Below are positions 17,054-47,132 of a stretch of DNA of 64,000 bases, piece by piece. A model generated the notes under the pieces. The model did no database searches, was not told where the DNA came from, and saw only the letters and a program-made list of their open reading frames with translations. This stretch comes from a virus, in IMG/VR virus record IMGVR_UViG_3300030103_005932, positions 2,628 to 66,627 of that record; one strand, written 5' to 3'. Numbering within the stretch: position 1 is the first letter of the stretch; every line of letters starts with the position of its first letter. The translations under genes were made by a program, and so were the position numbers.

Positions 17054-17056
17054 AAC

Positions 17057-21642: not shown

Positions 21643-22857
21643 ATGTTGATCGAAGACGTCCTAAATGAATTCAAAAGGACACATCTAGAACATATTGAAG
21701 ATATAGTACTCACAGATGGCTACGAAGGAGGTAAGGCAGTAGTAGAATATTTCCGTGGACTGTTGTTAACTCTCAAAGGCACGAGCTCTGAAGCAGTTAA
21801 AGTCTCGGTTAAATGGGATGGCGCACCTGCTGTGGTGTGTGGCGTTAATCCAGACAACGGCAGATTTTTTGTTGGAACAAAATCAGTGTTTGCCCAGAAC
21901 GCCAAGATTAACTACACCAAAAAAGATATTGCAAACAATCACGGAACCGACGATCTAGGACAAAAACTCTTAAAGTGTCTTGTGCATCTTAAGAAACTAA
22001 ACATGCAAGGTGTTTATCAAGGCGACTTACTTTTCACTGACGAGGACATCACAAGGAAAAACATAGACGGCAAACCACATTTGACTTTTACACCAAATAC
22101 TATTACCTATGCTGTACCTGAGCAACAGACATTAGGAAAGAGAATAGACAGAGCAAAAGTTGGAATAATATTTCATACAAGTTACGTTGGCGATTCATTG
22201 GCTGACATGAACGCACAGGCCGGAGCCGATGTAGAATCATTCACACAAAGTCCTGACGTGTTTTTTGACAATGCCACATACAAAGATGTATCAGGATCTG
22301 CAAAGTTTACAGACGACGAAACTGTTAACTTTGTTGCGGAGATTGAAAGACTAGAATCATTACTATCAAAAATACCTGCCAACCTATCAAACCTCTTTGG
22401 TGCCAATCAAGACTTTGTGCCTTTCTTTCAGATGTATATTAACGCAATGGTCAAACAAGGACAGTTGCCATCTAATAGCACACAGTTTATAAAAGGATTT
22501 CAACAATTTTACATAGATAGAATGAAACAACAAGCCGCAGGACTTAAAGCACAAAAGGCTCTGGCCTTACGTCAAGATAAAATAAAACAGATGCCACAGT
22601 TCCTTAACAAACTAAAAACTCCATTGACAGCAATGTTGATGTTCTATAAACAGGTGCAAAAAATGAAATCTATCATTTTACAGAAAATGAATCAAGCACA
22701 GGCTATAGGATCTTTCCAGCAGACTGACGGCGGACTACAAGTAACAGAGCCTGAAGGATTTGTAGCAGTAGATAAAACAGGCAATGCAGTAAAACTTGTT
22801 GATAGATTAGGATTTAGTAGACGTAACTTAACGGCTGTCAGCAAATTTAAGAAATAG
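21643..22857 (+). CDS. DUF6267-like phage protein
   Basis: THLEHIED, VKWDGAPA, FVGTKSVF, QGDLLF, PNTITY, PEGFV, KLVDRLGFSRRN. Confidence 0.8.
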   Translation: MLIEDVLNEFKRTHLEHIEDIVLTDGYEGGKAVVEYFRGLLLTLKGTSSEAVKVSVKWDGAPAVVCGVNPDNGRFFVGTKSVFAQNAKINYTKKDIANNHGTDDLGQKLLKCLVHLKKLNMQGVYQGDLLFTDEDITRKNIDGKPHLTFTPNTITYAVPEQQTLGKRIDRAKVGIIFHTSYVGDSLADMNAQAGADVESFTQSPDVFFDNATYKDVSGSAKFTDDETVNFVAEIERLESLLSKIPANLSNLFGANQDFVPFFQMYINAMVKQGQLPSNSTQFIKGFQQFYIDRMKQQAAGLKAQKALALRQDKIKQMPQFLNKLKTPLTAMLMFYKQVQKMKSIILQKMNQAQAIGSFQQTDGGLQVTEPEGFVAVDKTGNAVKLVDRLGFSRRNLTAVSKFKK

Positions 22858-30904: not shown

Positions 30905-32085
30905 TATGCAAATAATTTAGAATACTCCGGAAATGTATCACTAAATTTTTCCTTCCTTACTGTATCTATTTTCTTGTTGAATTCCTTGAAAGAGTTTTGA
31001 TGTTTGTCATAATCAGGTGGTGTGGTATTCAACCATTTTTGCAAATCCTGAAATTTGTTTACCCATACGCGATCTGTATTTTTATATTTCGAAAGTTTTT
31101 CTATCACGGCCTCTTTGATTTTCTTGGGAAGATATCTGACATCGTTCCACGGTTTGTCATCACACCACATTCCTATTGCATGTATACCCAATTTTTTAAA
31201 GTAGTCATAATTTTCTTCATAATAGTAGATGTTCCATGGTGTAATCGTTGCTCTAATTGTTATTGACACGTTGTCGTGCCTTTCACAATCTTGCATGTAT
31301 CTTGAAAGATTGGCCAATATGTTTTTCCATTTACTACCATACCTAATGTATTCGTTCTTTTCTCCAATTGCGTCAATGCTGAATCCTATGTGGGCACTTT
31401 TGAAATTGCTTAACTTCTCAACAAGGTCTTCTTTGTATACCATTCCGTTGGTATGGAGGTTAAACATTTTTTCTTTCACTGTCGGACTGGCAAGTGCCTG
31501 TTCCAACGTCTTCCAAAACAAAGGTATGATCATAGGTTCGCCACCATACATGTCCCAAAAAATAATATTGTCTTCCCATTCTGCCCATCTCTTTTCTAGT
31601 TTTTCATTATTGGTGTAAGCAGTCTTGTGCCGGTCATAGAATGTAAGATAGTCTTTGAATGACTTTCCTTGATTATCTAATGCATAGTCTGTTTTGTACC
31701 ACATGCTACTCGTATGTGAATTACAACTTCTACAGGCATTGTTACATAAGTTGCCAGGCTTCACAATCATTATTCTTGGTTGCTCTTCAAGTACTTCAAC
31801 ACCTTGTAGGTCTCTATTGAATCTCTGTCTAGTAGATTCAACACCCGCGTCCTCACGTTGCCAACAGGCTTGGCAGGCAGGATGCTTGATGTCATTTTTG
31901 TGTGCATCAAGTAGTTCTTTGCGATGGGCACTCTTCCATATATCTTTGGCATCATCTGTCAGCACGTTATAATGTCTTTGATTTTTATCTTTTAGGTAGT
32001 GCCCAATAAGTTGATTGCAAGGTTGCACCATGCCGCTCATGTCGAAGTTCAAAGACAACTGTAAAACTTTACACTCTATGGCCAT
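30904..32085 (-). CDS. radical SAM protein with N-terminal SPASM/twitch domain
   Basis: QPCN...CQACW; CNNACRSC; YGGEP; TNG; SIDAIG..NEYIR; start moved to MAIEC to avoid overlap with the exonuclease. Confidence 0.9.
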   Translation of the reverse strand: MAIECKVLQLSLNFDMSGMVQPCNQLIGHYLKDKNQRHYNVLTDDAKDIWKSAHRKELLDAHKNDIKHPACQACWQREDAGVESTRQRFNRDLQGVEVLEEQPRIMIVKPGNLCNNACRSCNSHTSSMWYKTDYALDNQGKSFKDYLTFYDRHKTAYTNNEKLEKRWAEWEDNIIFWDMYGGEPMIIPLFWKTLEQALASPTVKEKMFNLHTNGMVYKEDLVEKLSNFKSAHIGFSIDAIGEKNEYIRYGSKWKNILANLSRYMQDCERHDNVSITIRATITPWNIYYYEENYDYFKKLGIHAIGMWCDDKPWNDVRYLPKKIKEAVIEKLSKYKNTDRVWVNKFQDLQKWLNTTPPDYDKHQNSFKEFNKKIDTVRKEKFSDTFPEYSKLFA

Positions 32086-32161
32086 TAGTTTACTCCACAG
32101 GCCATTATGCTTGTTAGATTGATGGTTGTGATATATGACATTATAATGTATAATTATCTTT

Positions 32162-32866
32162 ATGAAAATACCTAAAGAGGCTCTCGAAAGCAAAGGTATC
32201 GCATATGTTGAGAAATATCCATATGGCGAACTAAACAGGCAGAGCAAAAACGGTAAAAGGCACTATCAGACCCCAGATGGCAGACTGGTGCCAAGTGTTA
32301 CCACAGTGTTGAGTGCAACCAAAGATATGACGCACCTACATGCATGGCGTAAGAGAGTGGGAGCCGAAAAGGCTCAACAGATCACCACAGAGAGTGCTAA
32401 CATAGGAACCGTGATGCACCGTAGCCTAGAAAAGCACGTGAAGGGTGAAGACCGCACACCGGGATCAAATTTAATACAACAAAAAGCACACACAATGGCC
32501 AATGTAATCATAGACAACGGATTAAAAGATATTTCTGAGGTATGGGGATCAGAGGTTTCGCTACATTATCCTGAACTTTACGCCGGCACCACAGACTTGG
32601 TTGGAGTGTACAAGGGCGAACCTGCTATTATGGATTTCAAGCAGGCACGTAGATTGAAGAAAAAAGAGTGGGTGGAGGATTACTATCTCCAATTGGTGGC
32701 ATACTCCGAAGCACATAACAAACAATACGACACACAGATTAAGACTGGTCGTATCTTTATCTGCACACAGGCCAACGAATATCAAACATTCGAAATAGAC
32801 AACTACGATCAGTGGGTGGGTAAATGGTACGCCAAATTGGAACAATACTACAAGTCTATACTGTAA
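32162..32866 (+). CDS. PD-(D/E)XK exonuclease (Cas4/MGME1-like phage exonuclease)
   Basis: PSVTTVL, GTVMH..LE, YAGTTDL, IMDFK, QLVAY. Confidence 0.9.
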   Translation: MKIPKEALESKGIAYVEKYPYGELNRQSKNGKRHYQTPDGRLVPSVTTVLSATKDMTHLHAWRKRVGAEKAQQITTESANIGTVMHRSLEKHVKGEDRTPGSNLIQQKAHTMANVIIDNGLKDISEVWGSEVSLHYPELYAGTTDLVGVYKGEPAIMDFKQARRLKKKEWVEDYYLQLVAYSEAHNKQYDTQIKTGRIFICTQANEYQTFEIDNYDQWVGKWYAKLEQYYKSIL

Positions 32867-32879
32867 TAAATAACAACAT

Positions 32880-34499
32880 ATGCCGATAGTACAGATATCT
32901 AGAATACAGCACAGACGCGGAAAAAGAACCGATCTACCACAACTTGCGGCGGGTGAGTTAGGATGGGTGATTGACGAACAGAGATTGTTTATAGGAAACG
33001 GCACAGTGGCTGACGGCGCACCTGCTGTTGGCAATACAGAGATCATGGTATCGGGCAGTTCAGGATTTACCACTGCGGCGACTTATACCTACAAAGGATA
33101 CTTAGGAGATTCGACTCCAATCACTACAGGTGCCTCAGGTGCAGTCACAAGAACTGTGCAACAAAGATTAGATGACTATGCAAATGTAAAACAGTTTGAC
33201 GCCAAGGGTGACAACAGCACAGACGACTCCGCGGCAATCCAAAGAGCAATAGACGAATTATATTCAGACACAGACCAAGATGACACAAGAGCAAGGAGAA
33301 CATTATTCTTTCCAGCAGGAATTTACAAGATTGATACGACATTAACCATTCCGCCATACGCACACTTGATTGGCGAAGGACACGACAAAACAATAATTGA
33401 AATGTCCGGTGCAAGTGCTATAATGGTGACAGAAGATGACGACGGTAATGGGTACCTAAATATAGGTGCTTCAAGTGCCACAACACCTACGCAAATCCAA
33501 TTCAGCAACATGACATTCAAGAATACAAATGCAAGTGGTTCGGGTATGTCGATTGACAGTGCAACTAATTTATATTTTGAAAACTGTAAGTTTCAAGGTG
33601 CGTACTCATCAGGTGGTGCTGATGTGTCTGCAAACAAAGGTATCACGGTAAGGTCCACAAATGCATTGCAATGTTCTAATGTATATTTTCACAACTGCCA
33701 ATTTACAAAATTTGCTAGGTTAGTTGACATGAGTTTTGACGTTACGACTGTTAGATTTCATAACTGTGATTTCAGCATAGGATACTATGGTGCAATCATT
33801 GGTGACGAATGGGATAGTTCAACCACAAATGGTATGAGTGTTGGACCTAGAGATGTGCAGTTCACAGGAAGTAGTTGGAGCAGTATATCGCAACAAGCGA
33901 TCTATGTGAAGGCAAAACAATCTGTTGAAGCACCATCGAGAAATATTATTTCGCATGGTAATTTTTATGCGAAGACTGTTGCAAATAATTTCGAAGGTGT
34001 GGATAGCATACACGAAGTGCCTGTCATTCAATATGACCAAGATGAGTGTAGTTCTATTATGGACTTTTTCGAAAGGACTGATCTTCGGGACACAGACTTT
34101 GGAGACAGCACAAAACCTTCTAATACTCCACCTGAGGTGCAGGGTATAGCAATACACACAAAAGCAGTAAGACAGATTACTTTAGCAGACAACACATCGA
34201 CGGCCACCGATACAGGAATATATCTTCCTGGCTTTCTTGACAAAGGTGTTAGGATCACTTACAAAATGAACCGCGGAGCAAAGTACAGAACAGGAGTGTT
34301 CACTATAAGTGCGGCAGGTGAGATCTGCACGTTCAACGACGACTACGAGGAAACGTCGGATGTCGGTACAACTTTGACAGCAAAAAGTTCGGACGGTGAC
34401 TCAACCGCAGGCAACGACACTCTTCGTGTGCAATTCACAACAACGTCTGATTCAAGCACAGACGTTACCATGGAATATCAAGTACAGATATTAGTGTAA
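32880..34499 (+). CDS. tail fiber/spike protein with Mtd-N-like anchor and pectate-lyase-like beta-helix
   Basis: RIQHRRG...LAAGELGW...LFIGNG; NVKQFDAKGD...DDSAAIQRAI; FFPAGIY. Confidence 0.8.
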   Translation: MPIVQISRIQHRRGKRTDLPQLAAGELGWVIDEQRLFIGNGTVADGAPAVGNTEIMVSGSSGFTTAATYTYKGYLGDSTPITTGASGAVTRTVQQRLDDYANVKQFDAKGDNSTDDSAAIQRAIDELYSDTDQDDTRARRTLFFPAGIYKIDTTLTIPPYAHLIGEGHDKTIIEMSGASAIMVTEDDDGNGYLNIGASSATTPTQIQFSNMTFKNTNASGSGMSIDSATNLYFENCKFQGAYSSGGADVSANKGITVRSTNALQCSNVYFHNCQFTKFARLVDMSFDVTTVRFHNCDFSIGYYGAIIGDEWDSSTTNGMSVGPRDVQFTGSSWSSISQQAIYVKAKQSVEAPSRNIISHGNFYAKTVANNFEGVDSIHEVPVIQYDQDECSSIMDFFERTDLRDTDFGDSTKPSNTPPEVQGIAIHTKAVRQITLADNTSTATDTGIYLPGFLDKGVRITYKMNRGAKYRTGVFTISAAGEICTFNDDYEETSDVGTTLTAKSSDGDSTAGNDTLRVQFTTTSDSSTDVTMEYQVQILV

Positions 34500-34503
34500 T
34501 AAA

Positions 34504-35205
34504 ATGACATTGTTAATAAATGGTTGCAGTTTTGCACGTATTTGGAATGTCAGCGAAGAATTCAAAAATCATTTAGGTTGTTCAAAAATTGTCAACATTG
34601 GTAAAGTCGGCACCGGATTTGCTCGAACATTAAGATCTACTATCGAATGGGTAGCACAAAATGGCAAACCTAGGTTTGCTATTATTCCGATAACTTATGC
34701 CCACAGATGGGATATGGCAATAGCCAAAGAGGACGACACCCTGGATGGCACATGGCATCCTCTTCTAGAAGAACCCCATCTTGATTTAGACCGTATCGAT
34801 CTAGAAAACGTGTCTGAAGATAAATTAAAAAAGTTAGTACCATACTATCATGGTTGCATTCCAAACGTCAGAACATATTGGGACAAGATTTTTACTGAAA
34901 TAATATCATTGGCATCGTTCTTCGAAGCAAACGGAATAGAGTATTTGATGTGCGACATGGTAAACAACTTTGAAGAGAAACATTTGGCAGGTTACCAAGG
35001 ATTTACTAAACTGGACCTTATTAAAAATAATAAAAACATTATTGATTTATTTTCTTTTTGTGGTAATCACTTTATGTATAACAAATTACCTGAAAATAAG
35101 CGTGTGGGAGTCCATCCATATGCAAACCATCATGGAGCAACTGAATATAAACATTTTGAGCAGTACTTAATCGACTACTTAAATTCAAAGTTGTGTATAG
35201 AATAA
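34504..35205 (+). CDS. SGNH-like protein (DUF6071-like)
   Basis: NGCSF, GTGFARTLRST, C-terminal HH. Confidence 0.65.
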   Translation: MTLLINGCSFARIWNVSEEFKNHLGCSKIVNIGKVGTGFARTLRSTIEWVAQNGKPRFAIIPITYAHRWDMAIAKEDDTLDGTWHPLLEEPHLDLDRIDLENVSEDKLKKLVPYYHGCIPNVRTYWDKIFTEIISLASFFEANGIEYLMCDMVNNFEEKHLAGYQGFTKLDLIKNNKNIIDLFSFCGNHFMYNKLPENKRVGVHPYANHHGATEYKHFEQYLIDYLNSKLCIE

Positions 35206-35344
35206 TCTATTATCCACTAGACAAAAAAGTTTTTTTATCTTAATATTAGTACATAATAAAAACACAAAACGACGTGGTGATTTTTATCGTATGAAGGTGA
35301 CAGGAAAGACAACAAAAAAGTAGATAAGCAGGATTTAGATAAAT

Positions 35345-37747
35345 ATGGACACAACAAAAACAAAAATCAAAACAAAAAATTATAAAACAATTATGCCAAA
35401 CACAAACTCATCTACGATTCAAGTTCAGAAACGAGATGGGAGGCTAGAAAATCTTGACATTAACAAAATTCATTTTGTAGTCGAAGAGGCCTGCGAAGGT
35501 CTTTCCGGAGTTTCTAGTTCTCTTATCGAAATGAACGCCAACATACAATTCTATGACGGAATGACAACCAAAGATATACAAAACGTTTTAGTAAGATCAG
35601 CAAATGATCTTATCAGTCTCGAAGCACCAAACTATCAATATGCCGCGGCAAGACTTTTATCTTATGATGTGAGGAAAGAGGCACACGGTCAGTATGAATA
35701 TATTCCATTATTGAAATTAATCTTAAGGAATATTAGACTTGGCGTCTATGACAAAGGCATACTAGACAAGTACACAAAAACAGAATTAAAGAAGTTCAAT
35801 ACATGGATCAGAAGAGACAGAGATTTAAAATTCACTTATGCAGGCCTAAGACAAATATGTGACAAGTATCTTGTACAAGACAGAAGCACAGGTCAACTTT
35901 ATGAGACACCACAAGACATGTACATGATGATCGCGGCAACACTATTCGCAGACTATCCTACAAAGACCAGGATGTCATATGTAAAAAAATATTACGATGC
36001 AATATCATTGCACAAAATTAACATACCCACTCCTGTTATGGCAGGTGTGAGAACTCCTATCAGGCAATTTGCTTCTTGCGTTCTAGTGGACAGTGATGAC
36101 ACATTGCCAAGTATTTTTTCAAGCGACATGGCCATAGGTTTATATGTTGCCAGAAGAGCAGGCATAGGAATAAACGCAGGACGTATCAGAGGAATCAATT
36201 CTAAAATAAGAGGAGGGGAGGTTCAACACACTGGAGTCATTCCGTTCCTAAAAAAATTCGAATCAACTGTGAGATGTTGTACACAAAATGGTGTGCGTGG
36301 CGGAAACGCAACAGTTCACTTTCCTATATGGCACCCAGAGATTGAAGACATCCTTGTATTGAAAAACAATAAAGGTACAGAAGACAACAGAGTGAGACGT
36401 ATGGACTACTCAATACAAATTTCTAAACTGTTCTATGAGAGATTTATGAACGAAGAAGAGATCACATTGATCTCTCCACACATGGCTCCTGGATTGTATG
36501 AAGCGTTTGGAACAGACGAATTCGATGACTTGTATCTAAAATACGAAGCAGATAAAACTATTCCAAAGAAAAAAGTTGCGGCACAGGATTTGTTTTTTGA
36601 TTTATTAAAAGAACGAGCAGAGACAGGCCGTATCTATATTATGAACTTAGACCATTGTAATTCGCACAGCAGTTTCAAAGATAAAGTGTCAATGAGTAAT
36701 CTATGTCAAGAAATTACACTGCCCACAACACCAATACAAGATATACACGATGACCAAGGTGAGATAGCACTTTGTATTCTTTCTGCTGTAAACGTTGGTG
36801 CATTGAATGATTTAAATGAATTAGAAAACATCTGTGATTTAAGTGTTAGGGCTCTGGAGCAAATAATAGACTACCAAGACTATCCAGTGAAGGCGGCCGA
36901 AGTATCCACAAAAGCAAGAAGAAGTCTTGGTATTGGTTACATTGGTCTTGCACACTACCTTGCAAAGAATAATGTAAAGTATTATGAAAAAGGAGCATGG
37001 GAACTTGTAGACAGACTTTCTGAAGCATTTCAATATTACCTGTTGAGAGCAAGTTGCGATATTGCAAAAGAAAAAGGCAAATGTGAAGGTTTCGCTAGAA
37101 CAAAATATGCAGATGGTCAACTGCCAATAGACCATTACAAAAAAGAAGTAGACGAAATTGTGCCACACAAACAACGTATGGCATGGGAGTCATTAAGAAA
37201 AGACATAGCGAAGTATGGTCTGAGACACAGCACATTGTCTGCACAAATGCCATCTGAAAGTTCTTCCGTTGTCAGTAACGAAACAAACGGCATAGAACCA
37301 CCAAGAGCGATGTTGCAGATTAAGAAAAGTAAAAAAGGTCCATTGAAACAGATAGCACCTGGTTTTCCAAAACTTAAAAATGACTATACATTACTCTGGG
37401 ATATGCCTAGCAACGAAGGATATATTAATGTCGTGGCAATGATGCAAAAGTATTTTGATCAAGCGATATCAGGCAACTGGAGTTATAATCCATTACACTA
37501 TGAAAATAATGAAGTACCATTGTCTGCAATGGCACAAGACATGTTGGTTGCTTACAAATATGGTTGGAAAACAAGTTATTATCAAAACACTTATGACTTC
37601 AAAGGTGAAGAAGAAGATGTGCAACCTGCAGGCATAGGAACAGCAGAAGATGATGAAGGAGAGGACGTCATCTTAGAACCTGAAAATGTTGAACAACAGA
37701 TAAGTAGTACCGCAGACGACGGTGAGTGCGAAGCCTGTACAATCTAA
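35345..37747 (+). CDS. nrdA: class Ia ribonucleotide reductase alpha subunit
   Basis: ATP cone (VQKRDG), PTPVMAG, QFASC, TQNGVRGG, SNLCQEI, C-terminal CEAC. Confidence 0.98.
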   Translation: MDTTKTKIKTKNYKTIMPNTNSSTIQVQKRDGRLENLDINKIHFVVEEACEGLSGVSSSLIEMNANIQFYDGMTTKDIQNVLVRSANDLISLEAPNYQYAAARLLSYDVRKEAHGQYEYIPLLKLILRNIRLGVYDKGILDKYTKTELKKFNTWIRRDRDLKFTYAGLRQICDKYLVQDRSTGQLYETPQDMYMMIAATLFADYPTKTRMSYVKKYYDAISLHKINIPTPVMAGVRTPIRQFASCVLVDSDDTLPSIFSSDMAIGLYVARRAGIGINAGRIRGINSKIRGGEVQHTGVIPFLKKFESTVRCCTQNGVRGGNATVHFPIWHPEIEDILVLKNNKGTEDNRVRRMDYSIQISKLFYERFMNEEEITLISPHMAPGLYEAFGTDEFDDLYLKYEADKTIPKKKVAAQDLFFDLLKERAETGRIYIMNLDHCNSHSSFKDKVSMSNLCQEITLPTTPIQDIHDDQGEIALCILSAVNVGALNDLNELENICDLSVRALEQIIDYQDYPVKAAEVSTKARRSLGIGYIGLAHYLAKNNVKYYEKGAWELVDRLSEAFQYYLLRASCDIAKEKGKCEGFARTKYADGQLPIDHYKKEVDEIVPHKQRMAWESLRKDIAKYGLRHSTLSAQMPSESSSVVSNETNGIEPPRAMLQIKKSKKGPLKQIAPGFPKLKNDYTLLWDMPSNEGYINVVAMMQKYFDQAISGNWSYNPLHYENNEVPLSAMAQDMLVAYKYGWKTSYYQNTYDFKGEEEDVQPAGIGTAEDDEGEDVILEPENVEQQISSTADDGECEACTI

Positions 37748-37762
37748 CATTAAAGAATTATT

Positions 37763-38863
37763 ATGACAAAAACAGTTTTTAACCAGGGCAAAGTTGACTT
37801 TACTAAACAGCCTATGTTCTTTGGCGAGGACGGTGGGGTACAAAGATATGATCAATTCAAGTATCCACAGTTCGATAAACTGAACCAGACAATGATTGGT
37901 TATTTCTGGAGACCAGAAGAAGTAAGTTTGCAAAAAGATAGAGCAGACTTTCAAACTTTTAGGCCTGAACAGAAACACATATTCACAAGTAATCTAAAAT
38001 ATCAAACACTATTGGACAGTGTGCAGGGCAGAGGACCCAGCCTTATGTTCCTGCCTTATGTTTCAAATCCTGAACTGGAAGGATGTATTGTTACTTGGGA
38101 CTTCTTCGAAACAATACACTCAAGATCATACACGCACATAATGAAGAATGTGTATCCAGACCCAACGGAAGTATTTGACACTATTGTAAACGACAAAGAA
38201 ATTTTAAAGAGAGCAAAATCAGTCACTGGCGAGTATGATAAGTTCGGAGCCATGGCACTAGACTACGCGGTTGGCAAAAAAGTTGATATGCTTGAATTGA
38301 AAAAACAATTATACCTAGCAATGAACACAGTGAACTTGTTAGAAGGTTTGAGATTTTACATATCATTTGCTTGTACTTTTGCATTTGGTGAACTTAAACT
38401 GATGGAAGGTTCGGCAAAGATACTTTCGCTTATCGCAAGAGATGAAGCAACACACTTGAACTTGTCCACACACGTAATAAAAGCATGGCACAAGGGCGAT
38501 GATCCAGAAATGACCAAAGCAATCAAAGGCACAGAAAAAACTGTGATACAGATGTTCAAAGACTGTGTTGAAGAAGAGAAGGCATGGGCAAAACACTTGT
38601 TCAAGGATGGTTCTATTATCGGACTAAATGAAAAACTTCTAGGCAACTACGTGGAATGGACAGCAAACAAGAGATTAAAAGCATTGGGATATGATCCGAT
38701 ATTTGATCAACCGGCAGGCACTAACCCACTGCCATGGACACAGCACTGGCTATCATCAAAAGGTATGCAGGTGGCACCACAAGAGACTGAAGTAGAATCC
38801 TACATTGTTGGTGGCATCAAGCAAGATGTTAAAAAAGGCCAGTTTAGCAAATTTAAACTTTAA
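37763..38863 (+). CDS. nrdB: class Ia ribonucleotide reductase beta subunit
   Basis: FWRPEE, ETIHSRSY, EGLRFY, RDEATH, VAPQETE. Confidence 0.98.
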   Translation: MTKTVFNQGKVDFTKQPMFFGEDGGVQRYDQFKYPQFDKLNQTMIGYFWRPEEVSLQKDRADFQTFRPEQKHIFTSNLKYQTLLDSVQGRGPSLMFLPYVSNPELEGCIVTWDFFETIHSRSYTHIMKNVYPDPTEVFDTIVNDKEILKRAKSVTGEYDKFGAMALDYAVGKKVDMLELKKQLYLAMNTVNLLEGLRFYISFACTFAFGELKLMEGSAKILSLIARDEATHLNLSTHVIKAWHKGDDPEMTKAIKGTEKTVIQMFKDCVEEEKAWAKHLFKDGSIIGLNEKLLGNYVEWTANKRLKALGYDPIFDQPAGTNPLPWTQHWLSSKGMQVAPQETEVESYIVGGIKQDVKKGQFSKFKL

Positions 38864-38875
38864 TAAGATCTACAT

Positions 38876-40129
38876 ATGGATAATAAGGATTACAAACCTG
38901 TTCATACCAATAAGGTAAAAGATAATACATCGCCTTTCACCGGACCGCTTGGATGGTTGGACAACAGGCTACCGATATTTAGAATGTTCAAGCATGAATA
39001 TCTTGACTTCCAAGTGCCAAAGAACCTAAACTATTTTTGGAGTTTTGGTGCTATTCTAACATTTACATTACTAGGATTAATTGCCACTGGCCTGGTGTTA
39101 GGTATGCACTACAAGCCAAGTGTGGCAGAAGCATTTTCTAGTGTCGAACACATCATGAGAGATGTAAACGGTGGCTGGCTGATACGGTACGCACACATGA
39201 ACTTGGCATCGTTCTTTTTCATTGCTGTCTATATACATATGTTCCGCGGATTATATTTTGGCTCTTACAAAGAACCGCGACAACTGATGTGGATATTTGG
39301 AATTATTATATACTTTTTAATGATGGCAACTGCTTTCCTTGGATATGTTTTACCGTGGGGACAAATGAGTTATTGGGGAGCCACAGTAATTACAAGTTTA
39401 TTTGGTGCTATTCCACTTGTTGGTGATTCCATTGTAACATTGCTATGGGGAGATTATGCAGTGGGAGATGCATTTCTAAACAGAGCATTCGTTTTACACT
39501 GGCTGATTGCATTTATAATTGTTTTGGTTGTAGTGTTTCATGTCATTGCTTTACATATGACAGGTTCAAACAATCCTACAGGCGTAGAACCCAAGGACAC
39601 ACGAGATACAGTTTCATTTCATCCATACGTGACTATGAAGGACATGTACGCTTTCTTGGTCTTCCTATTAATTTTTATGCTATTCTTGATGTACGTGCCA
39701 AACATATTAGGGCACCCTGACAACTACATAGAAGCAAATCCTTTGGTGACACCTGCCCACATTGTTCCTGAATGGTACTTCTTGCCTTGGTATGCTGTAT
39801 TGAGGGCGATACCAGATAAGTTGGGTGGTGTCATTGCAATGGTTTCCGCTATTGGGGTGATGGCCTTACTGCCATGGTTGGACACATCTAAAATACGATC
39901 TTCCATATATAGGCCAATATGGAAACAGTTCACTTGGTTTCTAGTTGGTGACTTCTTCCTATTGATGTATTGTGGAGCCATGCCAGCAGAAGGTGGCTGG
40001 ATATTATTAAGCAGGATTGGCACTGCGTACTGGTTTGCCTACTTCCTGATACTGGCTCCGGTAGTTGGTTGGACAGAAAAACCACGGCTGATACCCGACG
40101 CAATACATCTCCGCAACAAGAAAACATAG
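38876..40129 (+). CDS. petB: cytochrome b of the bc1 complex
   Basis: RYAHMN, YIHMFRG, LPWGQMSYWGATVI, FVLHW, FHVIALH, HPDNYIEANPLVTPAHIVPEWYFL, IPDKLGGV. Confidence 0.97.
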   Translation: MDNKDYKPVHTNKVKDNTSPFTGPLGWLDNRLPIFRMFKHEYLDFQVPKNLNYFWSFGAILTFTLLGLIATGLVLGMHYKPSVAEAFSSVEHIMRDVNGGWLIRYAHMNLASFFFIAVYIHMFRGLYFGSYKEPRQLMWIFGIIIYFLMMATAFLGYVLPWGQMSYWGATVITSLFGAIPLVGDSIVTLLWGDYAVGDAFLNRAFVLHWLIAFIIVLVVVFHVIALHMTGSNNPTGVEPKDTRDTVSFHPYVTMKDMYAFLVFLLIFMLFLMYVPNILGHPDNYIEANPLVTPAHIVPEWYFLPWYAVLRAIPDKLGGVIAMVSAIGVMALLPWLDTSKIRSSIYRPIWKQFTWFLVGDFFLLMYCGAMPAEGGWILLSRIGTAYWFAYFLILAPVVGWTEKPRLIPDAIHLRNKKT

Positions 40130-40156
40130 CACTTTTTGTCGGCAATAAATATCCAT

Positions 40157-40471
40157 ATGCCACGAATGTCAAGAAACAGAGTAGACAGAGCAAGGACAGG
40201 ACACCTTTGTACTCCTTCGATAGGGTGCATTGCCTCACAGAATTCTGTGTTCGGAAATGGAATATCATTCCTAAGGCTAGGTGACTCATTAATTAGGCAC
40301 ACTATCTTAGTGCCATGTGGTAAGACCACGTGTTGTAAAATGCATGGTGCATCAATAAGAAGAGGATCACCAAACGTGTTTGTGCAAGGCGTTCCGGTCG
40401 CACGGGTAGGTGATAGTGCTGACCTAGGAAGTATGATACAGGGTTCACCAAACGTGTTCGCAAACGGATAA
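40157..40471 (+). CDS. PAAR spike-tip protein
   Basis: D...TGH.C, RLGD, GSPNVFVQGVPVARVGD, GSPNVFANG; TAAATA 5 nt upstream. Confidence 0.9.
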   Translation: MPRMSRNRVDRARTGHLCTPSIGCIASQNSVFGNGISFLRLGDSLIRHTILVPCGKTTCCKMHGASIRRGSPNVFVQGVPVARVGDSADLGSMIQGSPNVFANG

Positions 40472-40473
40472 AA

Positions 40474-41757
40474 ATGACAGTAAACAAAGGCTTATCATCT
40501 CTCGTAAATTCAGATCCTGATTTCAGTAACCAGGCCGTAGAGAATGCAATCAATGACATCAAGGCAGTTGACAAAGACGATGGACATCAATTTATTCTTT
40601 CTCAATTTGCCGTTGATGAAGCAATACACGACAATGCTGTCTTAACGCAGACACAAAAAAATGACGCACTAGAAACTATATACAACGCCCAACCTCACCT
40701 ACAAATTGGACGGTACCTAAACGACGTTGTGAGGCACACAAACAGTATTTTAGATGGATCGATCATACCTGGAGATCCTGCAATAACAGGTACGTTGGAT
40801 AACGGACAAGGAGATTTTTTGGAAATATTGAGCTCTGTACAATCTTTACAGACCTTGATACCAAGTTTATACGGAGTACCTGCCAAGGACAAAGCAAGAT
40901 CAGTAAATGATCACTTGGGCACCTTAAACAATATATTTTCAGAAACCGAAGACAGTTCGGCGCCTGTGTTTACAAGATTAAAAAGGATTATGGAATTGAT
41001 TGATACTAATTCAAGGAGAACAAGTGCTTTGAATTTGGCCATCACAAACGCATCCGTGGCGAATTATAACTTAAGAACTTTCCTTACAACCATAACAGAT
41101 GACTCCACAGACTTCCAGCAAAGTTTGGACAACAGAGTAAACTCTATTGTTACAATGTTCTCCACCCTAAATACTCGTATCACAGAAATTACAGGAGATC
41201 CTACAACCGATCTGATTGCAATCAGAGAAGAAATAAATGTGCAGGTGCAACTTGAAAAAAGCAATATTTCTGGAATACGAACTTATCTAAAAAATGTATC
41301 GGAATATCAATCCTATGTTGGTTTGGCAGATGATGACGATCTACGAGAATTAATGGCAAAGGTGGCGCAGAACACTAATTGGCAAACTTACTTTACCGAA
41401 TACCAGGGAAACCAAGCATCTCTGAATCCACTCTACAACGCTACCACAGACTCAGACAAGAGTGCGATCATAGACCAAGTGTTGGCAAGTAGTGGACTGC
41501 CCGACGTTGTGGATCACTTGGATTTGGACGCGGTTGCCAACAAGGCCAAACGTGATGACAGAATAAGCACCAAAGGATTTGATCTACTGACCTCCGCACA
41601 GCAGATAACAAAATGCTGTGAACAATTGGCACTAGACACAGCCAACAGAGACATATTCGATCAAAGTAATAGGCTACTCAATAACTTGAATCAGCATGAT
41701 AGGGATAAGGTTCAACAGGCACTTGATCTTAACGAGGCCAGCAGTACCTTAAGTTAG
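40474..41757 (+). CDS. hypothetical protein, possibly baseplate/tail associated
   Basis: 427-aa helical ORF right after PAAR. Confidence 0.6.
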   Translation: MTVNKGLSSLVNSDPDFSNQAVENAINDIKAVDKDDGHQFILSQFAVDEAIHDNAVLTQTQKNDALETIYNAQPHLQIGRYLNDVVRHTNSILDGSIIPGDPAITGTLDNGQGDFLEILSSVQSLQTLIPSLYGVPAKDKARSVNDHLGTLNNIFSETEDSSAPVFTRLKRIMELIDTNSRRTSALNLAITNASVANYNLRTFLTTITDDSTDFQQSLDNRVNSIVTMFSTLNTRITEITGDPTTDLIAIREEINVQVQLEKSNISGIRTYLKNVSEYQSYVGLADDDDLRELMAKVAQNTNWQTYFTEYQGNQASLNPLYNATTDSDKSAIIDQVLASSGLPDVVDHLDLDAVANKAKRDDRISTKGFDLLTSAQQITKCCEQLALDTANRDIFDQSNRLLNNLNQHDRDKVQQALDLNEASSTLS

Positions 41758-41764
41758 GCTTAAC

Positions 41765-41993
41765 TTAACTATCAATCTTGCTACAACCTACTTGTATAGA
41801 TTTGAAATCCACACGCATCTCATAAAATCCGTCTATAGTTTCTTCAAGTTTTTTATATGAGGCTAGATTGCATTCGTCTACAGTTTTGTATATTTTTGGT
41901 GGATCTTCGTAATAGGTTGTGCAGTCAACAACACTGGTCATTATATCATCAGGCCACGATGTTAAACACATAATTGCAAACATTTCGAACATA
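41765..41993 (-). CDS. hypothetical Cys-containing protein
   Basis: ORF downstream of the tmRNA; start trimmed to avoid the RNA. Confidence 0.55.
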
Positions 41994-42004
41994 AAACTAT
42001 TTAC

Positions 42005-42307
42005 AAAAAGTGGCCCGTTCTGTTGCAAGGTGGGCCAAACCCCTGAAATTATTGGTTATTACGCCGCTAATCTCAATGCAGGCATACTGACTGTTAGGTC
42101 AGCAAACCCTAATGCTCTTTTGTTTGCATTTAAAAACGGCCTGTTTAGGTCAGTGCCATCACCGCAAACTCCCAAGATCTTTACACACCCGTCGAATCTA
42201 GTTCACCCCCGGAAGGGATTACATAGGCCACCAAGTAATAAATTGGTGGAGGTGGTCGGTACTGCCCCGACGTCCGAAATGTTTATTTCATCTTGATCAA
42301 CATTTAC
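42005..42307 (-). ncRNA. ssrA: two-piece (circularly permuted) tmRNA
   Basis: acceptor piece ending GUCGG-GGCAGUA-CCGAC-CACCUCC-A-CCA (3' end 42244) precedes coding piece GGGGGUGAACUAGAUUCGAC (5' end 42210); G3-U70 pair; tag ANKRALGFADLTVSMPALRLAA at 42127-42059. Confidence 0.95.
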
Positions 42308-42365
42308 AAATAATATTTAAGCACAGAGTTGACCTTTTGTCAACAATGTGTATAATTAGAAGTAT

Positions 42366-42569
42366 ATGCCAAAAAATAGAATTTTCAAATTTGATGATGG
42401 GACAGAGACAAAAGATGTTGAAGCTCTTTCTTTCAAGAAGGCCGTGAAGTCATTTCAGGGCAATTCTAAAGCCAAGATGGTAACTATTGAGTGGACGACG
42501 AAGAACGGGGAGGTTTTCGTCAAGGAACAACAATTACCAATTGGTAGAAAGAAAAAGTTAGGCAGGTAA
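42366..42569 (+). CDS. hypothetical basic protein
   Basis: downstream of TTGACC-16-TATAAT promoter (42329-42356). Confidence 0.7.
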   Translation: MPKNRIFKFDDGTETKDVEALSFKKAVKSFQGNSKAKMVTIEWTTKNGEVFVKEQQLPIGRKKKLGR

Positions 42570-42736
42570 TGAGAGTAAATCACAACCCGTTAGTAAAATT
42601 ATTAGTTAAATTAAGAATGTGGATTGCAGATGTGCGTGGACATCACGGCAAGCCATGGGACTATGAACCAGGTGACTACTACATGGGCAGTCACAAAGGC
42701 CATAGGAAACACGAAGAGAAACACGGAATCAAATGA
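42569..42736 (+). CDS. small His-rich protein (55 aa; not in ORF track)
   Basis: MRVNHNPLVKLLVKLRMWIADVRGHHGKPWDYEPGDYYMGSHKGHRKHEEKHGIK; TAATG coupling. Confidence 0.55.
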   Translation: MRVNHNPLVKLLVKLRMWIADVRGHHGKPWDYEPGDYYMGSHKGHRKHEEKHGIK

Positions 42737-42806
42737 GCAGATTGATGTGGACAATACTTTTAGTCTACACATCAGCATTCATTTTTGGTTGTGTCACACT
42801 TTTATA

Positions 42807-43007
42807 ATGGGCAAAGTCACAAACAGATATTGGGTAGTTGAAGGGACACACAAGGATCCCAACGACATAGACACATTAGATCATAAAACAGAGACAAAGT
42901 ATGGACCTTACAGCAACGAGGAACAAGCCTCGGAACTGGCAAAGTCATTGATCCAACGCAACATAGATGATTATTATCACCGTGCTTGGGTAATCACAAA
43001 ACACTAA
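42807..43007 (+). CDS. DUF4170-like small protein
   Basis: YWVVEG...YGPY..EEQA....Q.NIDDYYHRAW pattern. Confidence 0.55.
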   Translation: MGKVTNRYWVVEGTHKDPNDIDTLDHKTETKYGPYSNEEQASELAKSLIQRNIDDYYHRAWVITKH

Positions 43008-43056
43008 TAGAACTCCATAGCCTAAGGATTTAAATAATATTGTCAAGGGGGTGGTC

Positions 43057-43344
43057 ATGTTATTCAAATCAGCACAAAAGCGGACTAACTATTGGTCCAA
43101 GATACGTAAGAAAGCACCAAAGGTGCCGGATATCACTTGTCCGGACATAGACAAAATTCTTGATATATTGGATAGGGCACAAAAAAACGACAAGCCACTT
43201 TCAGAAGCAAAGCATAAGCAAATAGAACGTATAATGGAAAAATTGCGAACTGCTAACGACTCATTGAGAGAATCTGGAAAATTCTGGCACGACGCCTGCA
43301 AGGATACCGTAAGAGATCTATTAGGTAAAAAACGCCTACGTTGA
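43057..43344 (+). CDS. hypothetical protein
   Basis: PDITCPDID...MEKLR.AN..LR motif; TAAATA upstream. Confidence 0.65.
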   Translation: MLFKSAQKRTNYWSKIRKKAPKVPDITCPDIDKILDILDRAQKNDKPLSEAKHKQIERIMEKLRTANDSLRESGKFWHDACKDTVRDLLGKKRLR

Positions 43345-43444
43345 CAAAAATCTATTTCTGTGTTATAATACTTTTGTATTTTTAGATACAGCCTATTGTT
43401 GGCATTTTCTAGAGATACATCATATTAAACAATTGGAGAAAAAT

Positions 43445-44524
43445 ATGGAAAACGTAAGAACGCTTCTTGACGTCGTTGATGAAGTCAAAAGAGAAGCACC
43501 AGAAGACGTGCCAAACTGGACAAAAAGGTACGAAGAAGCAAAAATTAATCTCAACAACAAATTGGAAGAAGGATTCAGTCTGCCACTGGGCACTGAAGCA
43601 CACCCCTTAGAAGATTTCGCATTTAATTACTCTGTGCAGAGAGATGTACGTGCAGGACACGTTATGAATATTATGCGGAAGTTTGATCCAAGAGTGTGCT
43701 GTCCTGTGTCGGCAGTGAGAAGATCCGATAGCAAAACACTTTACATTTTTGACGGACAACACAGAGCAGTAAGCCTGGCATTGTTAGGTTTCAAGAGCAT
43801 TCCGGTTACGATAGTTGAAACCGATGAACCGGCATTTGATGCCATTGCTTTCGAAATAGTAAATGACACAGGTATATTAAGGGCAGGTACAGAGGAGATC
43901 CATAGAGTCCTATTACACAGATATAAAATGGGCGAAGAAGAAGTTGATAGCAGGCCTTGGATCGCAAGGCAAGTGCAAGACGCTTTTGATCAAGTTGGCA
44001 TTGATCTCGAACCAAAAAGGGTAAGAAGCAGTGCAAACAAGAAAGGACCAAATGATCATTATTTTTCACATTTTGATTATGCCTACAAGGGAATGAAGAT
44101 GTCCGGAAAGGATGGACTAACCAATGCTTTGAAGGCAATCAAGGAAGTGTTTCCGGACGAGCCAGGTGGAGAGATCAATCAAGGTTTGTTTATTGGTCTT
44201 ATGAAACAGTATGAATTGTCGGCGGGCAGGTTGCACAGGTTGCCGGACGATTGGATGAAACAATTATTGTTGGCAACTAAATCTGTGTGTGCAAGTGCAA
44301 CACTAATACACACTGCCAGTAAGAGGCAATGGCAACACGCAAACGGTACTGGATGGGACGCACCTGTGGCAATGGCTCATGTTCTGAAAGAGATCTATGA
44401 GGCAGAAGTGCCAGAAGGGTTCGAACCAAGTTTCATTCAACAAGTAAATGTTGGACTGAAAGACAGCAATATCTCACCAGAGTCAGAAGCACAAACAGCC
44501 TTCAAGAAATATGTTAATGCTTGA
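43445..44524 (+). CDS. ParB/Srx-superfamily DGQHR-motif protein (DUF6551-like)
   Basis: SVQRD...YIFDGQHRA; sigma70 promoter at 43341-43369. Confidence 0.75.
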   Translation: MENVRTLLDVVDEVKREAPEDVPNWTKRYEEAKINLNNKLEEGFSLPLGTEAHPLEDFAFNYSVQRDVRAGHVMNIMRKFDPRVCCPVSAVRRSDSKTLYIFDGQHRAVSLALLGFKSIPVTIVETDEPAFDAIAFEIVNDTGILRAGTEEIHRVLLHRYKMGEEEVDSRPWIARQVQDAFDQVGIDLEPKRVRSSANKKGPNDHYFSHFDYAYKGMKMSGKDGLTNALKAIKEVFPDEPGGEINQGLFIGLMKQYELSAGRLHRLPDDWMKQLLLATKSVCASATLIHTASKRQWQHANGTGWDAPVAMAHVLKEIYEAEVPEGFEPSFIQQVNVGLKDSNISPESEAQTAFKKYVNA

Positions 44525-44711
44525 AGAATATGTATATAAGATGAGAGTCACCAAAAACAATAAAACTGAGACTTGGTGGCTCTGTCTTCCGTTGAACATG
44601 ATTGATGCAACTGTGCAAGACCATTATGATTGGGGAGCAGATGCAGTTGAATTAGAATTAATGCCAAATATCACTAGGGAGCAGTTTCATGATAAACTAC
44701 CAAAATCTTAA
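44511..44711 (+). CDS. hypothetical protein
   Basis: 66-aa ORF overlapping both neighbours. Confidence 0.55.
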   Translation: MLMLEEYVYKMRVTKNNKTETWWLCLPLNMIDATVQDHYDWGADAVELELMPNITREQFHDKLPKS

Positions 44712-45213
44712 AAATATTCCAGAGATAACGTTCAAGTCTAAAACAAAGCCAGCAGTGGCCGAACTATCGAAATACATAGACAGCATGAAATCGGATCTGT
44801 TTAATGATGCGTGGAGTCAGGCTACAAAAAAACATATCAAGACATCCTTGACTTTGTACATCAGATCCATGCAGAAACAATTGGCCCCGATGGGATACCA
44901 TTATCGTGCAGATGACATAGAAGGCAAACAGCACCTAGAACACGTGATCCCCCAGAACAAAATTATTAACGCATATTTGCACGGCTTTATTACTGCCGAG
45001 CAGGCCTTACAAATGCCTTTGTGTATTATCAGCGACTCCGATAAACATCTACTAGAAGGTGACTGGCAACAGTCTGGCAACTGGCAATATCCTTTCCGAA
45101 GATATCAATCTGCAGGTTATACTAAAACTATTAGAAGTGTTGATGGACGTGTTATTGACATGCAGAAGCACACACTGGATGGCCATTTCGCTATGCTAGG
45201 GATCAAAGCATAA
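44689..45213 (+). CDS. HNH-like/His-Me finger protein
   Basis: HLEHVIPQN...PLCIIS...YPFRRY. Confidence 0.55.
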   Translation: MINYQNLKNIPEITFKSKTKPAVAELSKYIDSMKSDLFNDAWSQATKKHIKTSLTLYIRSMQKQLAPMGYHYRADDIEGKQHLEHVIPQNKIINAYLHGFITAEQALQMPLCIISDSDKHLLEGDWQQSGNWQYPFRRYQSAGYTKTIRSVDGRVIDMQKHTLDGHFAMLGIKA

Positions 45214-45227
45214 TATAAGTATTCTCG

Positions 45228-46289
45228 ATGATACGTCAAAAACGTCCGACCCAGCAGTACAAATTACTCCAAAAAGAATATGACGATGTCTATAAGGACA
45301 TCATGCTGAATGGCTATGATTTCAGTGGACCTTACACAGAAAAGTGCCAAGAAAAACTTAAAGAAATTACAGGAAGAAAGCATATGTACATGACTATCAG
45401 CGGCACCGGTGCCATTACGGCGGCCATATATGCCCTCGACTTATTTGATAAGAAAGTTGCAGTAAGCAGTTGGAATTATTCGGCCTGCGTTAACCAGTAC
45501 CAAGCATTTAGCAAACCAGTTTTTGTTGACTGTGATGATAATTTTTTTATAGACATAGAAAAAATACCTTCAGACTGTGATGCAGTGATGTTGGTAAATT
45601 ACTTCGGCAACGTGGTTGACTATGATAAGTTGGCATCTGTGTACAAAGGCAAAGTAGTGGCAGATTGTAGCCAGGCACTAGGAGCAACCTACAAAGGAAG
45701 AACCGACGGATATTTTGGTGATGTCAGCACTTTTGCATTTGGTGGGCAAAAGCCACTAGGAACAAGAGGCTTTGCAGGTGCAATAGGAACCGACGACGAT
45801 GACATCGCATATCGAATTGATTGTGTCATCAATCAAGGCAAGGCAGGTGAAAACAGGAACAACAAAACAGAAATGTTAGGATTCAGAGGCACACCGCAGG
45901 AACTACAATGCGGAATGCTTTATGTTGGTATGAAACACTACAAAGAATGGCAAGAAAAAAGGAAAAAAATTGCCACACGGATACAAGATGAATTGTCGGA
46001 TTGCCCATTGCGTTTTATTAAAACAAATTACTGCGACAGCGGATACTTCAAATTGCCGTTTGAATTAGACAACAGAGATAAATTTATTGCTTTTATGCAT
46101 GAGCAAGGAGTTGACGCACAGGTGACATTTCTTGACGACTGGAATGTTGTATTTGGCGATGGTACACCGATGCCAAACACTCAGAAAATGATATCAAACA
46201 CAGCAACTTTACCACTTTCACCGTTCTTTTCTGATGAGGAAGTCACTACAATAATTGAAGCAGTGAAAAAATTTTACAAACAAGGTTGA
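45228..46289 (+). CDS. DegT/DnrJ/EryC1/StrS sugar aminotransferase
   Basis: SGTGAI, PVFVD, DCSQALGA, FAFGGQKPLG, LPLSP. Confidence 0.9.
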   Translation: MIRQKRPTQQYKLLQKEYDDVYKDIMLNGYDFSGPYTEKCQEKLKEITGRKHMYMTISGTGAITAAIYALDLFDKKVAVSSWNYSACVNQYQAFSKPVFVDCDDNFFIDIEKIPSDCDAVMLVNYFGNVVDYDKLASVYKGKVVADCSQALGATYKGRTDGYFGDVSTFAFGGQKPLGTRGFAGAIGTDDDDIAYRIDCVINQGKAGENRNNKTEMLGFRGTPQELQCGMLYVGMKHYKEWQEKRKKIATRIQDELSDCPLRFIKTNYCDSGYFKLPFELDNRDKFIAFMHEQGVDAQVTFLDDWNVVFGDGTPMPNTQKMISNTATLPLSPFFSDEEVTTIIEAVKKFYKQG

Positions 46290-46313
46290 CTAATAACCAA
46301 ATTGTAGTATAAT
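46284..46313 (+). promoter_or_regulatory. early sigma70-type promoter
   Basis: GG-TTGACT-16nt-TATAAT. Confidence 0.8.
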
Positions 46314-46317
46314 TAGG

Positions 46318-46445
46318 ACAGCGGACCACCAGAGCCGGTAAGGTGCCAGTGCTCATTTGTAAATCTTATTGGAGACGCTCTACGTCGATGATGGATTATA
46401 GCCAAAAGCGGCGAGGCTGGAGTCGATAACGGACTGGTGGTATGC
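46318..46445 (+). ncRNA. candidate structured ncRNA or long structured leader
   Basis: GC-rich non-coding tract after the promoter; closing stem ACCACCAG/CTGGTGGT and nested stems CCG/CGG, CCAGT/GCTGG, CTC/GAG, AATC/GATT, GACG/CGTC. Confidence 0.55.
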
Positions 46446-46453
46446 TAAACAAT

Positions 46454-46984
46454 ATGCCAAGCGATAAAACAAAAAAATTACTAGAAGGACTAGGCAAAAT
46501 CACAGATAGCAGTGGTGTTGGCCCTACCAAAGAAGAACCAAAAGTACATTCATTTACAAACAGATTTTACACATCCATTTCACCAAGTATCCACGAACTG
46601 CCGGCAAAATACAAAAGGGCAAAAAAGAGAAAGGACGAGGATGGAGAAGAATATGTAATGATTGATAGGGTATATGGCAGTATATTTGTTGGGGGTGCAA
46701 GGTTATTACAAGCAGACGGTTCAACTTACAAAGGAAAGTTATACACTAAACGGAGATTGATTTCTAACAAAGATCCAATGACGAGGGAGAACAAGAGTTT
46801 TTACAGTCGATGCACGGTCACTGCAGATGGTAGATGGTTCGACAACGCAGGATTGCCAATAGAGGCTCCAAAAAATTTAGAGCCAGAAAAGGTTAAGTCC
46901 AAGGAAGAAGTAGAAGAAGAACAAAGGATCAAAGCAGAAAAACTAAAAAGGAAAGAAGCCGAGATACTGGCTAATTTGAAATGA
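46454..46984 (+). CDS. hypothetical protein
   Basis: TADGRWFDNAGLPI motif; charged C-terminus. Confidence 0.7.
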   Translation: MPSDKTKKLLEGLGKITDSSGVGPTKEEPKVHSFTNRFYTSISPSIHELPAKYKRAKKRKDEDGEEYVMIDRVYGSIFVGGARLLQADGSTYKGKLYTKRRLISNKDPMTRENKSFYSRCTVTADGRWFDNAGLPIEAPKNLEPEKVKSKEEVEEEQRIKAEKLKRKEAEILANLK

Positions 46985-47132
46985 CGCCTTTGGCCAAAAA
47001 GTTCTTGCCGAGTAAGGATAGATTGGTAAACAATGCTTACCAAATGATGATTACTGCAAAGGACCCATGGTTCCAGAAATATTGGGAAAAGGTTTACATA
47101 CACCTTTGCAAACAATATAATAAAATTAACTA

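Follow-up and report, generated by a model that had tools for sequence, protein, structure and literature searches.

Why would a marine phage carry an intact gene for cytochrome b of the respiratory bc1 complex, and what would the protein do in an infected cell? The question is raised by a stretch of 64 kb (hereafter the window) from the single 66,627-base virus record IMGVR_UViG_3300030103_005932, in which positions 38876..40129 of the + strand encode a full-length, 417-aa cytochrome b of the bc1 (PetB) type. The gene is intact, borne by phage, recurrent in other viral contigs, under selection and unaccompanied by nearby genes for partner subunits. The account that we favour as the more probable one, on the basis of sequence comparison, is that it is an auxiliary metabolic gene of a large marine tailed phage, a lone subunit whose product would join the bc1 complex of the host, putatively a streamlined alphaproteobacterium related to SAR11 or HIMB59.

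The window encodes a complete cytochrome b of the bc1 type

The open reading frame (ORF) starts with ATG, and its single chain holds, fused over the full length, both domains that mark the family, the two-haem N-terminal four-helix domain and the C-terminal domain; at 417 aa it falls in the family's usual range of about 400-440 aa. Pfam PF00033 (Cytochrome_B) matches residues 44-230 (1.5e-66, 224.3 bits against a cut-off of 27.2) and PF00032 (Cytochrom_B_C) matches residues 286-387 (3.8e-39, 133.5 bits against a cut-off of 20.7). Cytochrome b chains of solved bc1 structures align with the protein end to end across residues 16-410, the best of them being 1zrt_C (E 1.4e-139). In the alignment with this chain, His107, His121, His208 and His222 correspond to chain positions 97, 111, 198 and 212, which we take to be the ligands of haems bL and bH. 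The WGATVI segment is present, the PEWY motif occupies residues 298-301, and the Qi residues are His227, Lys255 and Asp256. The initial annotation had called a full 417-aa cytochrome b with four haem histidines, WGATVI and PEWY, and it is borne out by Pfam, by the 1zrt_C alignment and by the residue alignment described below. The NCBIfam models for b6, ExtP and QcrB matched below their cut-offs only, and no PHROGs family was found for the protein.

Functional residues are conserved and the viral gene is under purifying selection

Scanning IMG/VR with peptide patterns taken from the window protein, an approach restricted to close relatives, yielded 34 loci. We aligned 33 viral and 59 cellular rows with MAFFT and compared the residues that matter for function. 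The four haem histidines are kept throughout (33/33 viral and 59/59 cellular rows), as are, in 33/33 viral rows, the His, Lys and Asp of the Qi site and the P, W and Y of PEWY. The Glu of PEWY is kept in 32/33 viral rows; the exception has Asn, a residue that also occurs in three cellular rows. Conservation among the 59 cellular rows reaches 85% or more in 177 columns, and 160 of these are likewise kept by 90% or more of the 19-row viral clade to which the window belongs (see below); the window itself agrees with 164 of the 177. Close to the Qo and haem sites the clade carries the substitutions F305W, I122M (beside a haem His), N174S, T200F and F204A. Only F305W, which lies four residues past PEWY, is a clade-fixed change at a position where cells almost never have the residue in question.

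Selection was estimated by the Nei-Gojobori method with a custom script, using 17 coding sequences of the window clade. Synonymous sites are saturated in 124 of the 136 pairs; in the 12 usable pairs the median dN/dS is 0.068 and the maximum 0.10, and dN in the pairs that include the window ranges from 0.028 to 0.150. The phage cytochrome b is under strong purifying selection, and relaxed selection, which had been named at the outset as a finding that would speak against an auxiliary metabolic gene, is contradicted by a dN/dS of about 0.07.

Cytochrome b lies in a phage gene layout that recurs in other viral contigs

The gene begins 12 nt after nrdB, which encodes the small subunit of a class Ia ribonucleotide reductase (37763..38863, +; Pfam Ribonuc_red_sm 3.4e-51; phrog_86 7.3e-152). 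Upstream of nrdB, across a gap of 15 nt, is nrdA, the large subunit with an ATP-cone domain (35345..37747, +; Pfam Ribonuc_red_lgC 3.2e-133 plus ATP-cone; phrog_84 1102 bits). On the other side comes a PAAR-motif protein of the phage spike tip type (40136..40471, +; Pfam PAAR_motif 3.9e-10; phrog_281 1.1e-18), whose true start may be a few codons within this ORF, and after PAAR in the shared layout a conserved 427-aa protein, orf427 (40474..41757, +), for which no Pfam, PHROG or NCBIfam family scored above threshold and no redox family matched. ORFs, Pfam and PHROGs thus uphold the placement first described, 12 bp after nrdB with PAAR downstream and amid phage genes. The tight spacing, taken by itself, suggests that cytochrome b may be co-transcribed with nrdA and nrdB.

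A search of viral databases for the order nrdB-cytochrome b-PAAR had been proposed with the initial annotation, and the layout recurs in 12 viral contigs. At 12 of the 34 IMG/VR loci, drawn from different metagenomes, nrdB is directly upstream of cytochrome b; nrdA is also present at 11 of them, and nine extend through PAAR-orf427. Across the 12 loci, identities are 90-96% for nrdB and 85-97% for cytochrome b, and across the nine they are 37-59% for PAAR and 31-66% for orf427.

The junctions themselves are found in independent assemblies. Marine metagenome runs from at least eight studies contain the window's stretch. Logan records of 412 and 432 nt bridge the nrdB/cytochrome b junction (38812-39223 and 38805-39223), and records of 798 and 489 nt bridge the cytochrome b/PAAR junction (39772-40569 and 40064-40552). 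All are DNA contigs, from two runs of two other studies, and each has 0-1 differences. An assembly chimera at the junctions, the other finding named beforehand as fatal to the claim, is therefore excluded, because the nrdB-cytochrome b junction recurs at 12 loci and independent contigs bridge both junctions.

RNA libraries hold a few further contigs. One exact 151-nt contig from library X20 lies within cytochrome b (39883-40030) and one exact 153-nt contig from library X21 lies in nrdB; carry-over of DNA is possible in both libraries. Other contigs from RNA libraries that cover parts of cytochrome b are mostly 90-95% alike and represent the conserved cytochrome b of other organisms.

Viral cytochrome b is not accompanied by Rieske or cytochrome c1 genes

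Profile searches find no match to Rieske (PF00355) or cytochrome c1 (PF02167) across the whole 66,627-base contig, which confirms, over the full record, the absence first noted in the window. The same holds for all five viral records searched (0/5, the window's and four others), the two largest of which, at 172 and 155 kb, are without petA and petC as well. The flanks of the remaining loci were also covered: 115 ORFs were computed at 21 non-syntenic loci, and after removal of L003, L026 and L030, which are near-duplicates, and of some neighbours that recur, 86 ORFs at 18 loci were searched with Pfam, with Rieske or c1 in none of them (0/86). As a control, the gene order Rieske-cytochrome b-c1 (petA-petB-petC) is found at 11/11 cellular loci. 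The viral loci are without this operon context, which is a matter of gene context and not of protein family.

Viral copies arose from alphaproteobacterial cytochrome b more than once

We placed the viral copies in a quick IQ-TREE phylogeny (LG+C20+F+G4, SH-aLRT support only) of 92 rows, each a translated tblastn match region. The tree leaves out L018 and L034 (short, mitochondrial), the duplicates L115-117 and four partial cellular rows, as well as, for size, about 50 further alphaproteobacterial GTDB loci; 25 of those loci were hand-picked. The window falls in an all-viral clade of 19 rows (support 99), which branches among Fonsibacter-like and HIMB59-type sequences. Other viral copies are placed elsewhere: L019 and L020 are inside the HIMB59-type clade (support 100), L032 is beside three uncultured alphaproteobacteria (100), L014, L015 and L030 are beside the Fonsibacter-like group (99), and L023-L029 form a separate clade. 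A single clade for all 33 viral rows is rejected by the approximately unbiased (AU) test (log-likelihood 571.8 lower, p-AU 1.2e-5), which was run after the tree had been seen and with the viral group defined by provenance. Compared with alphaproteobacterial PetB, as had been suggested initially, the viral rows are therefore nested among alphaproteobacterial sequences in several places, as is expected of genes derived from hosts.

The distance to the nearest cellular sequence differs between these groups. The best viral-to-cellular identities are 89.7% for L019, 86.5% for L032, 86.0% for L014 and 74.8% for the window. Cytochrome b is present in 98/101 Pelagibacterales genomes, of which five Fonsibacter-like ones match the window at 71-75% and the others at 56-63%. 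In the HIMB59-type order the best match among 151 genomes is 67%, and in a pattern scan of GTDB the best among the matches listed is a Fonsibacter metagenome-assembled genome at 71%.

Exchange is seen most directly on closely related phage backbones. Comparing L002/L003 with L019/L020, DnaB is 91-92% and DnaE 84-87% identical, yet cytochrome b is 63% identical and falls in different places on the tree. This argues for several captures or replacements that were independent of the replication module, and we conclude that phages acquired cytochrome b from hosts, or exchanged it with them, on more than one occasion.

In these phages cytochrome b is always present in an island between DnaB and a DnaE-like gene on the reverse strand (L019, 4796-14384; L020, 7374-13566; also L002/L003). 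The other contents of the island vary on backbones that are 84-92% identical and include NuoB, SufB, HhH-GPD, a 2OG oxygenase, a quinone-dependent dihydroorotate dehydrogenase and an uncharacterised 240-aa ORF. Iron-sulfur assembly genes travel with viral cytochrome b: SufB and NuoB are directly upstream of it in L019 (8038-10001). A SufT-like protein (PF01883) adjoins thyX in the window (60654-61052, +), and a member of the same family follows directly after cytochrome b in L028 (11371-11739). L034, an IMG/VR GVMAG bin, is a mitochondrial fragment: at 4273-9902 it has NAD5, COX2 and a cytochrome b that a LAGLIDADG ORF interrupts.

A lone subunit for the host bc1 complex is the favoured explanation

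If the gene is an auxiliary metabolic gene, cytochrome b would be made during infection, probably from a transcript shared with nrdA-nrdB, and would enter the inner membrane and be loaded with its two haems. It would then assemble with the Rieske and cytochrome c1 subunits of the host, replacing or adding to host cytochrome b, and quinol oxidation, proton-motive force and quinone recycling could continue as host gene expression fails. That the product joins host Rieske and c1 is suggested because nearly all bc1-specific sites are kept and three viral groups stay close to particular host lineages; the alphaproteobacterial two-piece transfer-messenger RNA (tmRNA) on the window counts in favour as a host signal. 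An auxiliary role in sustaining proton-motive force had already been proposed in the initial annotation. Of that proposal, the intact gene, the phage context, the recurrence at 12 loci, the bridged junctions, the selection and the lone subunit hold, and we infer that the gene is expressed, that its product assembles with host subunits in the membrane and that the phage gains fitness from it.

Several points weigh against this explanation. Haem loading and assembly with host Rieske and c1 are predictions, and the hint of expression is a single exact 151-nt contig from a metatranscriptome library that can contain DNA. A scan for promoters and terminators returned background levels (six terminator-like sites against 6.0 expected) and is uninformative. 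The putative host lacks a match: ClpX, considered as a host signal, is about 50% identical to its counterparts in all 61 Pelagibacterales genomes searched and favours none, and no cellular donor of cytochrome b exceeds 75% identity among 252 sampled genomes, so the window's copy may have long evolved inside phages. The contig is about 19% of the estimated genome, and petA and petC could therefore lie in the unseen part. Finally, we know of no fast, damage-driven turnover of cytochrome b of the kind seen in photosystem II D1, and the analogy with cyanophage psbA (below) thus comes without its usual rationale.

How do other explanations fare? The phage protein might act without host Rieske or c1, as a two-haem transmembrane electron wire or a quinol-binding protein, alone or with a phage partner such as orf427. 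Partner subunit genes are indeed absent from five viral records, and clade-typical changes sit beside functional sites (I122M at a haem His, F305W just after PEWY). We nevertheless consider such a stand-alone role improbable: the 160 of 177 conserved bc1 columns that are kept include the Qo PEWY loop, which is sensible only with a docking Rieske head, the 86-90% identity of three viral groups to particular host lineages fits matching host partners, and orf427 comes after PAAR and resembles no redox family. Very improbable in our view is a takeover, in which the phage subunit displaces host cytochrome b and alters or throttles complex III (reactive oxygen species, inhibitor sensitivity, regulation) or excludes competing phages. 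The catalytic and ligand residues are all intact, the dN/dS of about 0.07 indicates conservation and not diversifying selection, and the neighbours in L019 and L020 are of a supportive kind (NuoB and quinone-dependent dihydroorotate dehydrogenase in both, SufB in L019 only), although the clade-fixed F305W, I122M, N174S, T200F and F204A are compatible with altered properties and the repeated exchange between phages with a function in an arms race.

The least credible alternative, and one that is largely refuted, is that the gene is cellular DNA with no phage role, brought in by misassembly, misclassification or the host flank of a provirus. It could draw on the provirus classification of one syntenic record (G104) in IMG/VR, on the host-like genes of the window (ClpX, ClpS, Hsp20, tmRNA and the SufT-like protein) and on the sole match among deposited phages, which is at a record end and probably in host flank. 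It does not account for a nrdB-cytochrome b junction shared by 12 viral contigs, nine of them through PAAR-orf427, or for junctions that are both bridged elsewhere at 0-1 differences. Moreover, petA-petB-petC is the arrangement at 11/11 cellular loci and never at viral loci, none of the 252 cellular genomes has a copy above 75%, and phage hallmark genes are on the same contigs.

A related proposal concerns what the phage would gain. Here jumbo phages that infect streamlined marine alphaproteobacteria would carry an exchangeable cassette acting on the quinone pool, with cytochrome b as its fixed core and nucleotide supply rather than ATP as the main pay-off. We regard this as a tentative idea and rather unlikely to be correct as it stands. 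In L019 the order between DnaB and DnaE is NuoB, SufB, cytochrome b and quinone-dependent dihydroorotate dehydrogenase (318 bits, NF003652 cut-off 267), and in L020 it is NuoB, cytochrome b and quinone-dependent dihydroorotate dehydrogenase. All five candidate-host genomes encode the quinone-dependent dihydroorotate dehydrogenase (5/5), and cytochrome bd oxidase was found in none of them (0/5), bo3-type oxidases being outside this search; bc1 may therefore be the only route by which electrons fed into the quinone pool by pyrimidine synthesis can leave it. DnaB and DnaE remain 84-92% identical while the island's cytochrome b allele follows the apparent host. Taken together, the host enzymes, the island genes and the linkage to nrdAB raise the hypothesis that what the phage gains may be a supply of regenerated quinone for pyrimidine and deoxynucleotide (dNTP) synthesis, in which case phages would swap in a host-matched cytochrome b and so keep ubiquinone regenerated for dNTP synthesis.

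Relation to known phage and cellular systems

Cyanophage psbA and psbD encode photosystem II D1 and D2, and petE, petF and PTOX are other electron-transport genes of cyanophages; expression of psbA by phage has been shown. Like psbA and psbD, the phage cytochrome b gene encodes a host-derived, intact core membrane subunit under purifying selection, with the rest of the complex left to the host. Unlike them, it belongs to respiratory complex III in heterotrophic alphaproteobacteria and not to photosynthesis, and it is known from sequence alone. A second parallel is phage amoC/pmoC; Chen and colleagues reportedly described a lone pmoC in large freshwater phages in 2020 (Nat Microbiol). There, too, large phages encode a single membrane subunit of a host complex that has three, and the gene recurs on many metagenomic contigs, whereas the enzymes differ (ammonia/methane monooxygenase as against quinol:cytochrome c oxidoreductase) and cytochrome b sits in an exchangeable cassette on near-identical phage backbones. 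The cellular PetB/FbcB proteins of alphaproteobacterial petABC/fbcFBC operons have the same domains, length, haem ligands and Qo/Qi residues, the closest being those of Fonsibacter-like Pelagibacterales at 71-75%; the window copy differs from them in having no flanking Rieske or c1, in its all-viral clade and in the fixed F305W. Phage cytochrome b adds a member for respiratory complex III to the lone-subunit auxiliary metabolic genes already known, with a function that is predicted.

We found no description of a bc1 cytochrome b in phages in the literature searched, which lay outside supplements and subscription journals. One earlier study lists petB (K00412) reads for clean viromes in its Table 1 (Roux et al. 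2013, Open Biol, PMC3877843); this is a read-level listing that comes without gene, genome context, phylogeny or selection analysis. The terms cytochrome, SAR11 and tmRNA have no matches in a pelagimyophage paper (PMC7029224) and in two papers on marine jumbo phages (PMC9123017, PMC12619734), and PMC6109700 and PMC13469137 mention cytochrome b in cellular contexts only. A tblastn search of 50,697 deposited phage records gave one match, PQ159902.1 (35702-36760, 37% identity), located at the extreme end of a Helicobacter phage record; this cytochrome-b-like stretch is probably host flank of a prophage. The initial remark that cytochrome b is not a common phage gene therefore fits the deposited phages, with their single 37% match, and needs to be tempered for IMG/VR, where 33 loci were found by a search confined to close relatives.

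Support of host energy metabolism by phages is well known for photosynthesis and not for the respiratory chain of the dominant heterotrophs of the ocean. If our explanation is correct, viruses of SAR11-like and HIMB59-like bacteria would directly manipulate respiration. The apparent exchange of alleles on a conserved phage backbone offers a testable handle on host range, and the gene points to poorly described phages of about 350 kb that infect bacteria with very small genomes.

Other features of the phage contig

Phage-type genes in the window include those for an ATP-dependent DNA ligase, two cell-wall hydrolases, a virion structural protein, PAAR, nrdAB and thyX, together with a tail-spike-like protein that is pectate-lyase-like with an Mtd_N domain; when relatives of the latter were sought, there were weak partial matches to unrelated phages only. 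There are also many short ORFs without a family. Among cultured phages, the closest match to a DUF6267/phrog_455 gene (21643..22857) is in Pelagibacter phage HTVC008M (41.3% identity over the full length, E 1e-85); of the 465 phage records that the gene matches, 451 are named Synechococcus, Prochlorococcus or cyanophage. A terminase large subunit is encoded on another cytochrome-b-bearing record (G106), and the Phage_sheath_1 family was found in none of the five such records (0/5). Megablast of window positions 30000-50000 against the 50,697 deposited phage records returned no match.

CheckV puts the completeness of the window's record (66.6 kb) at 19% and that of the four other cytochrome-b-bearing records at 20% (67 kb), 47% (172 kb), 44% (155 kb) and 12% (43.5 kb), values from which we estimate a genome size of about 350 kb. 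IMG/VR classes the 67-kb syntenic record G104 (locus L021) as a provirus and the window's record and the three others as linear.

The tmRNA of the window, at 42009..42365 (-), is of the alphaproteobacterial two-piece (permuted) type, with Rfam scores of 108.8 bits for alpha_tmRNA and 112.5 bits for tmRNA_permuted, and ARAGORN agrees; the tag peptide that ARAGORN gives is ANKRALGFADLTVSMPALRLAA. An ORF on the + strand (41919-42296) overlaps it and is probably spurious. A proteostasis set is encoded on the + strand, comprising ClpX with a zinc finger (55064-56317), Hsp20 (57901-58404) and a ClpS adaptor (58474-58779). Sugar-modification and radical-SAM genes occupy 13194-18585, 29606-32247, 45228-50190 and 61776-62582; they include two UDP-glucose/GDP-mannose dehydrogenase-like genes, a DegT aminotransferase, a PIG-L deacetylase, a short-chain dehydrogenase, a methyltransferase and four radical-SAM genes, and may form a glycan or nucleotide-sugar pathway. 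Small host-like DUF1178 and DUF4170 proteins are encoded at 19139-19558 (-) and 42624-43007 (+), respectively.

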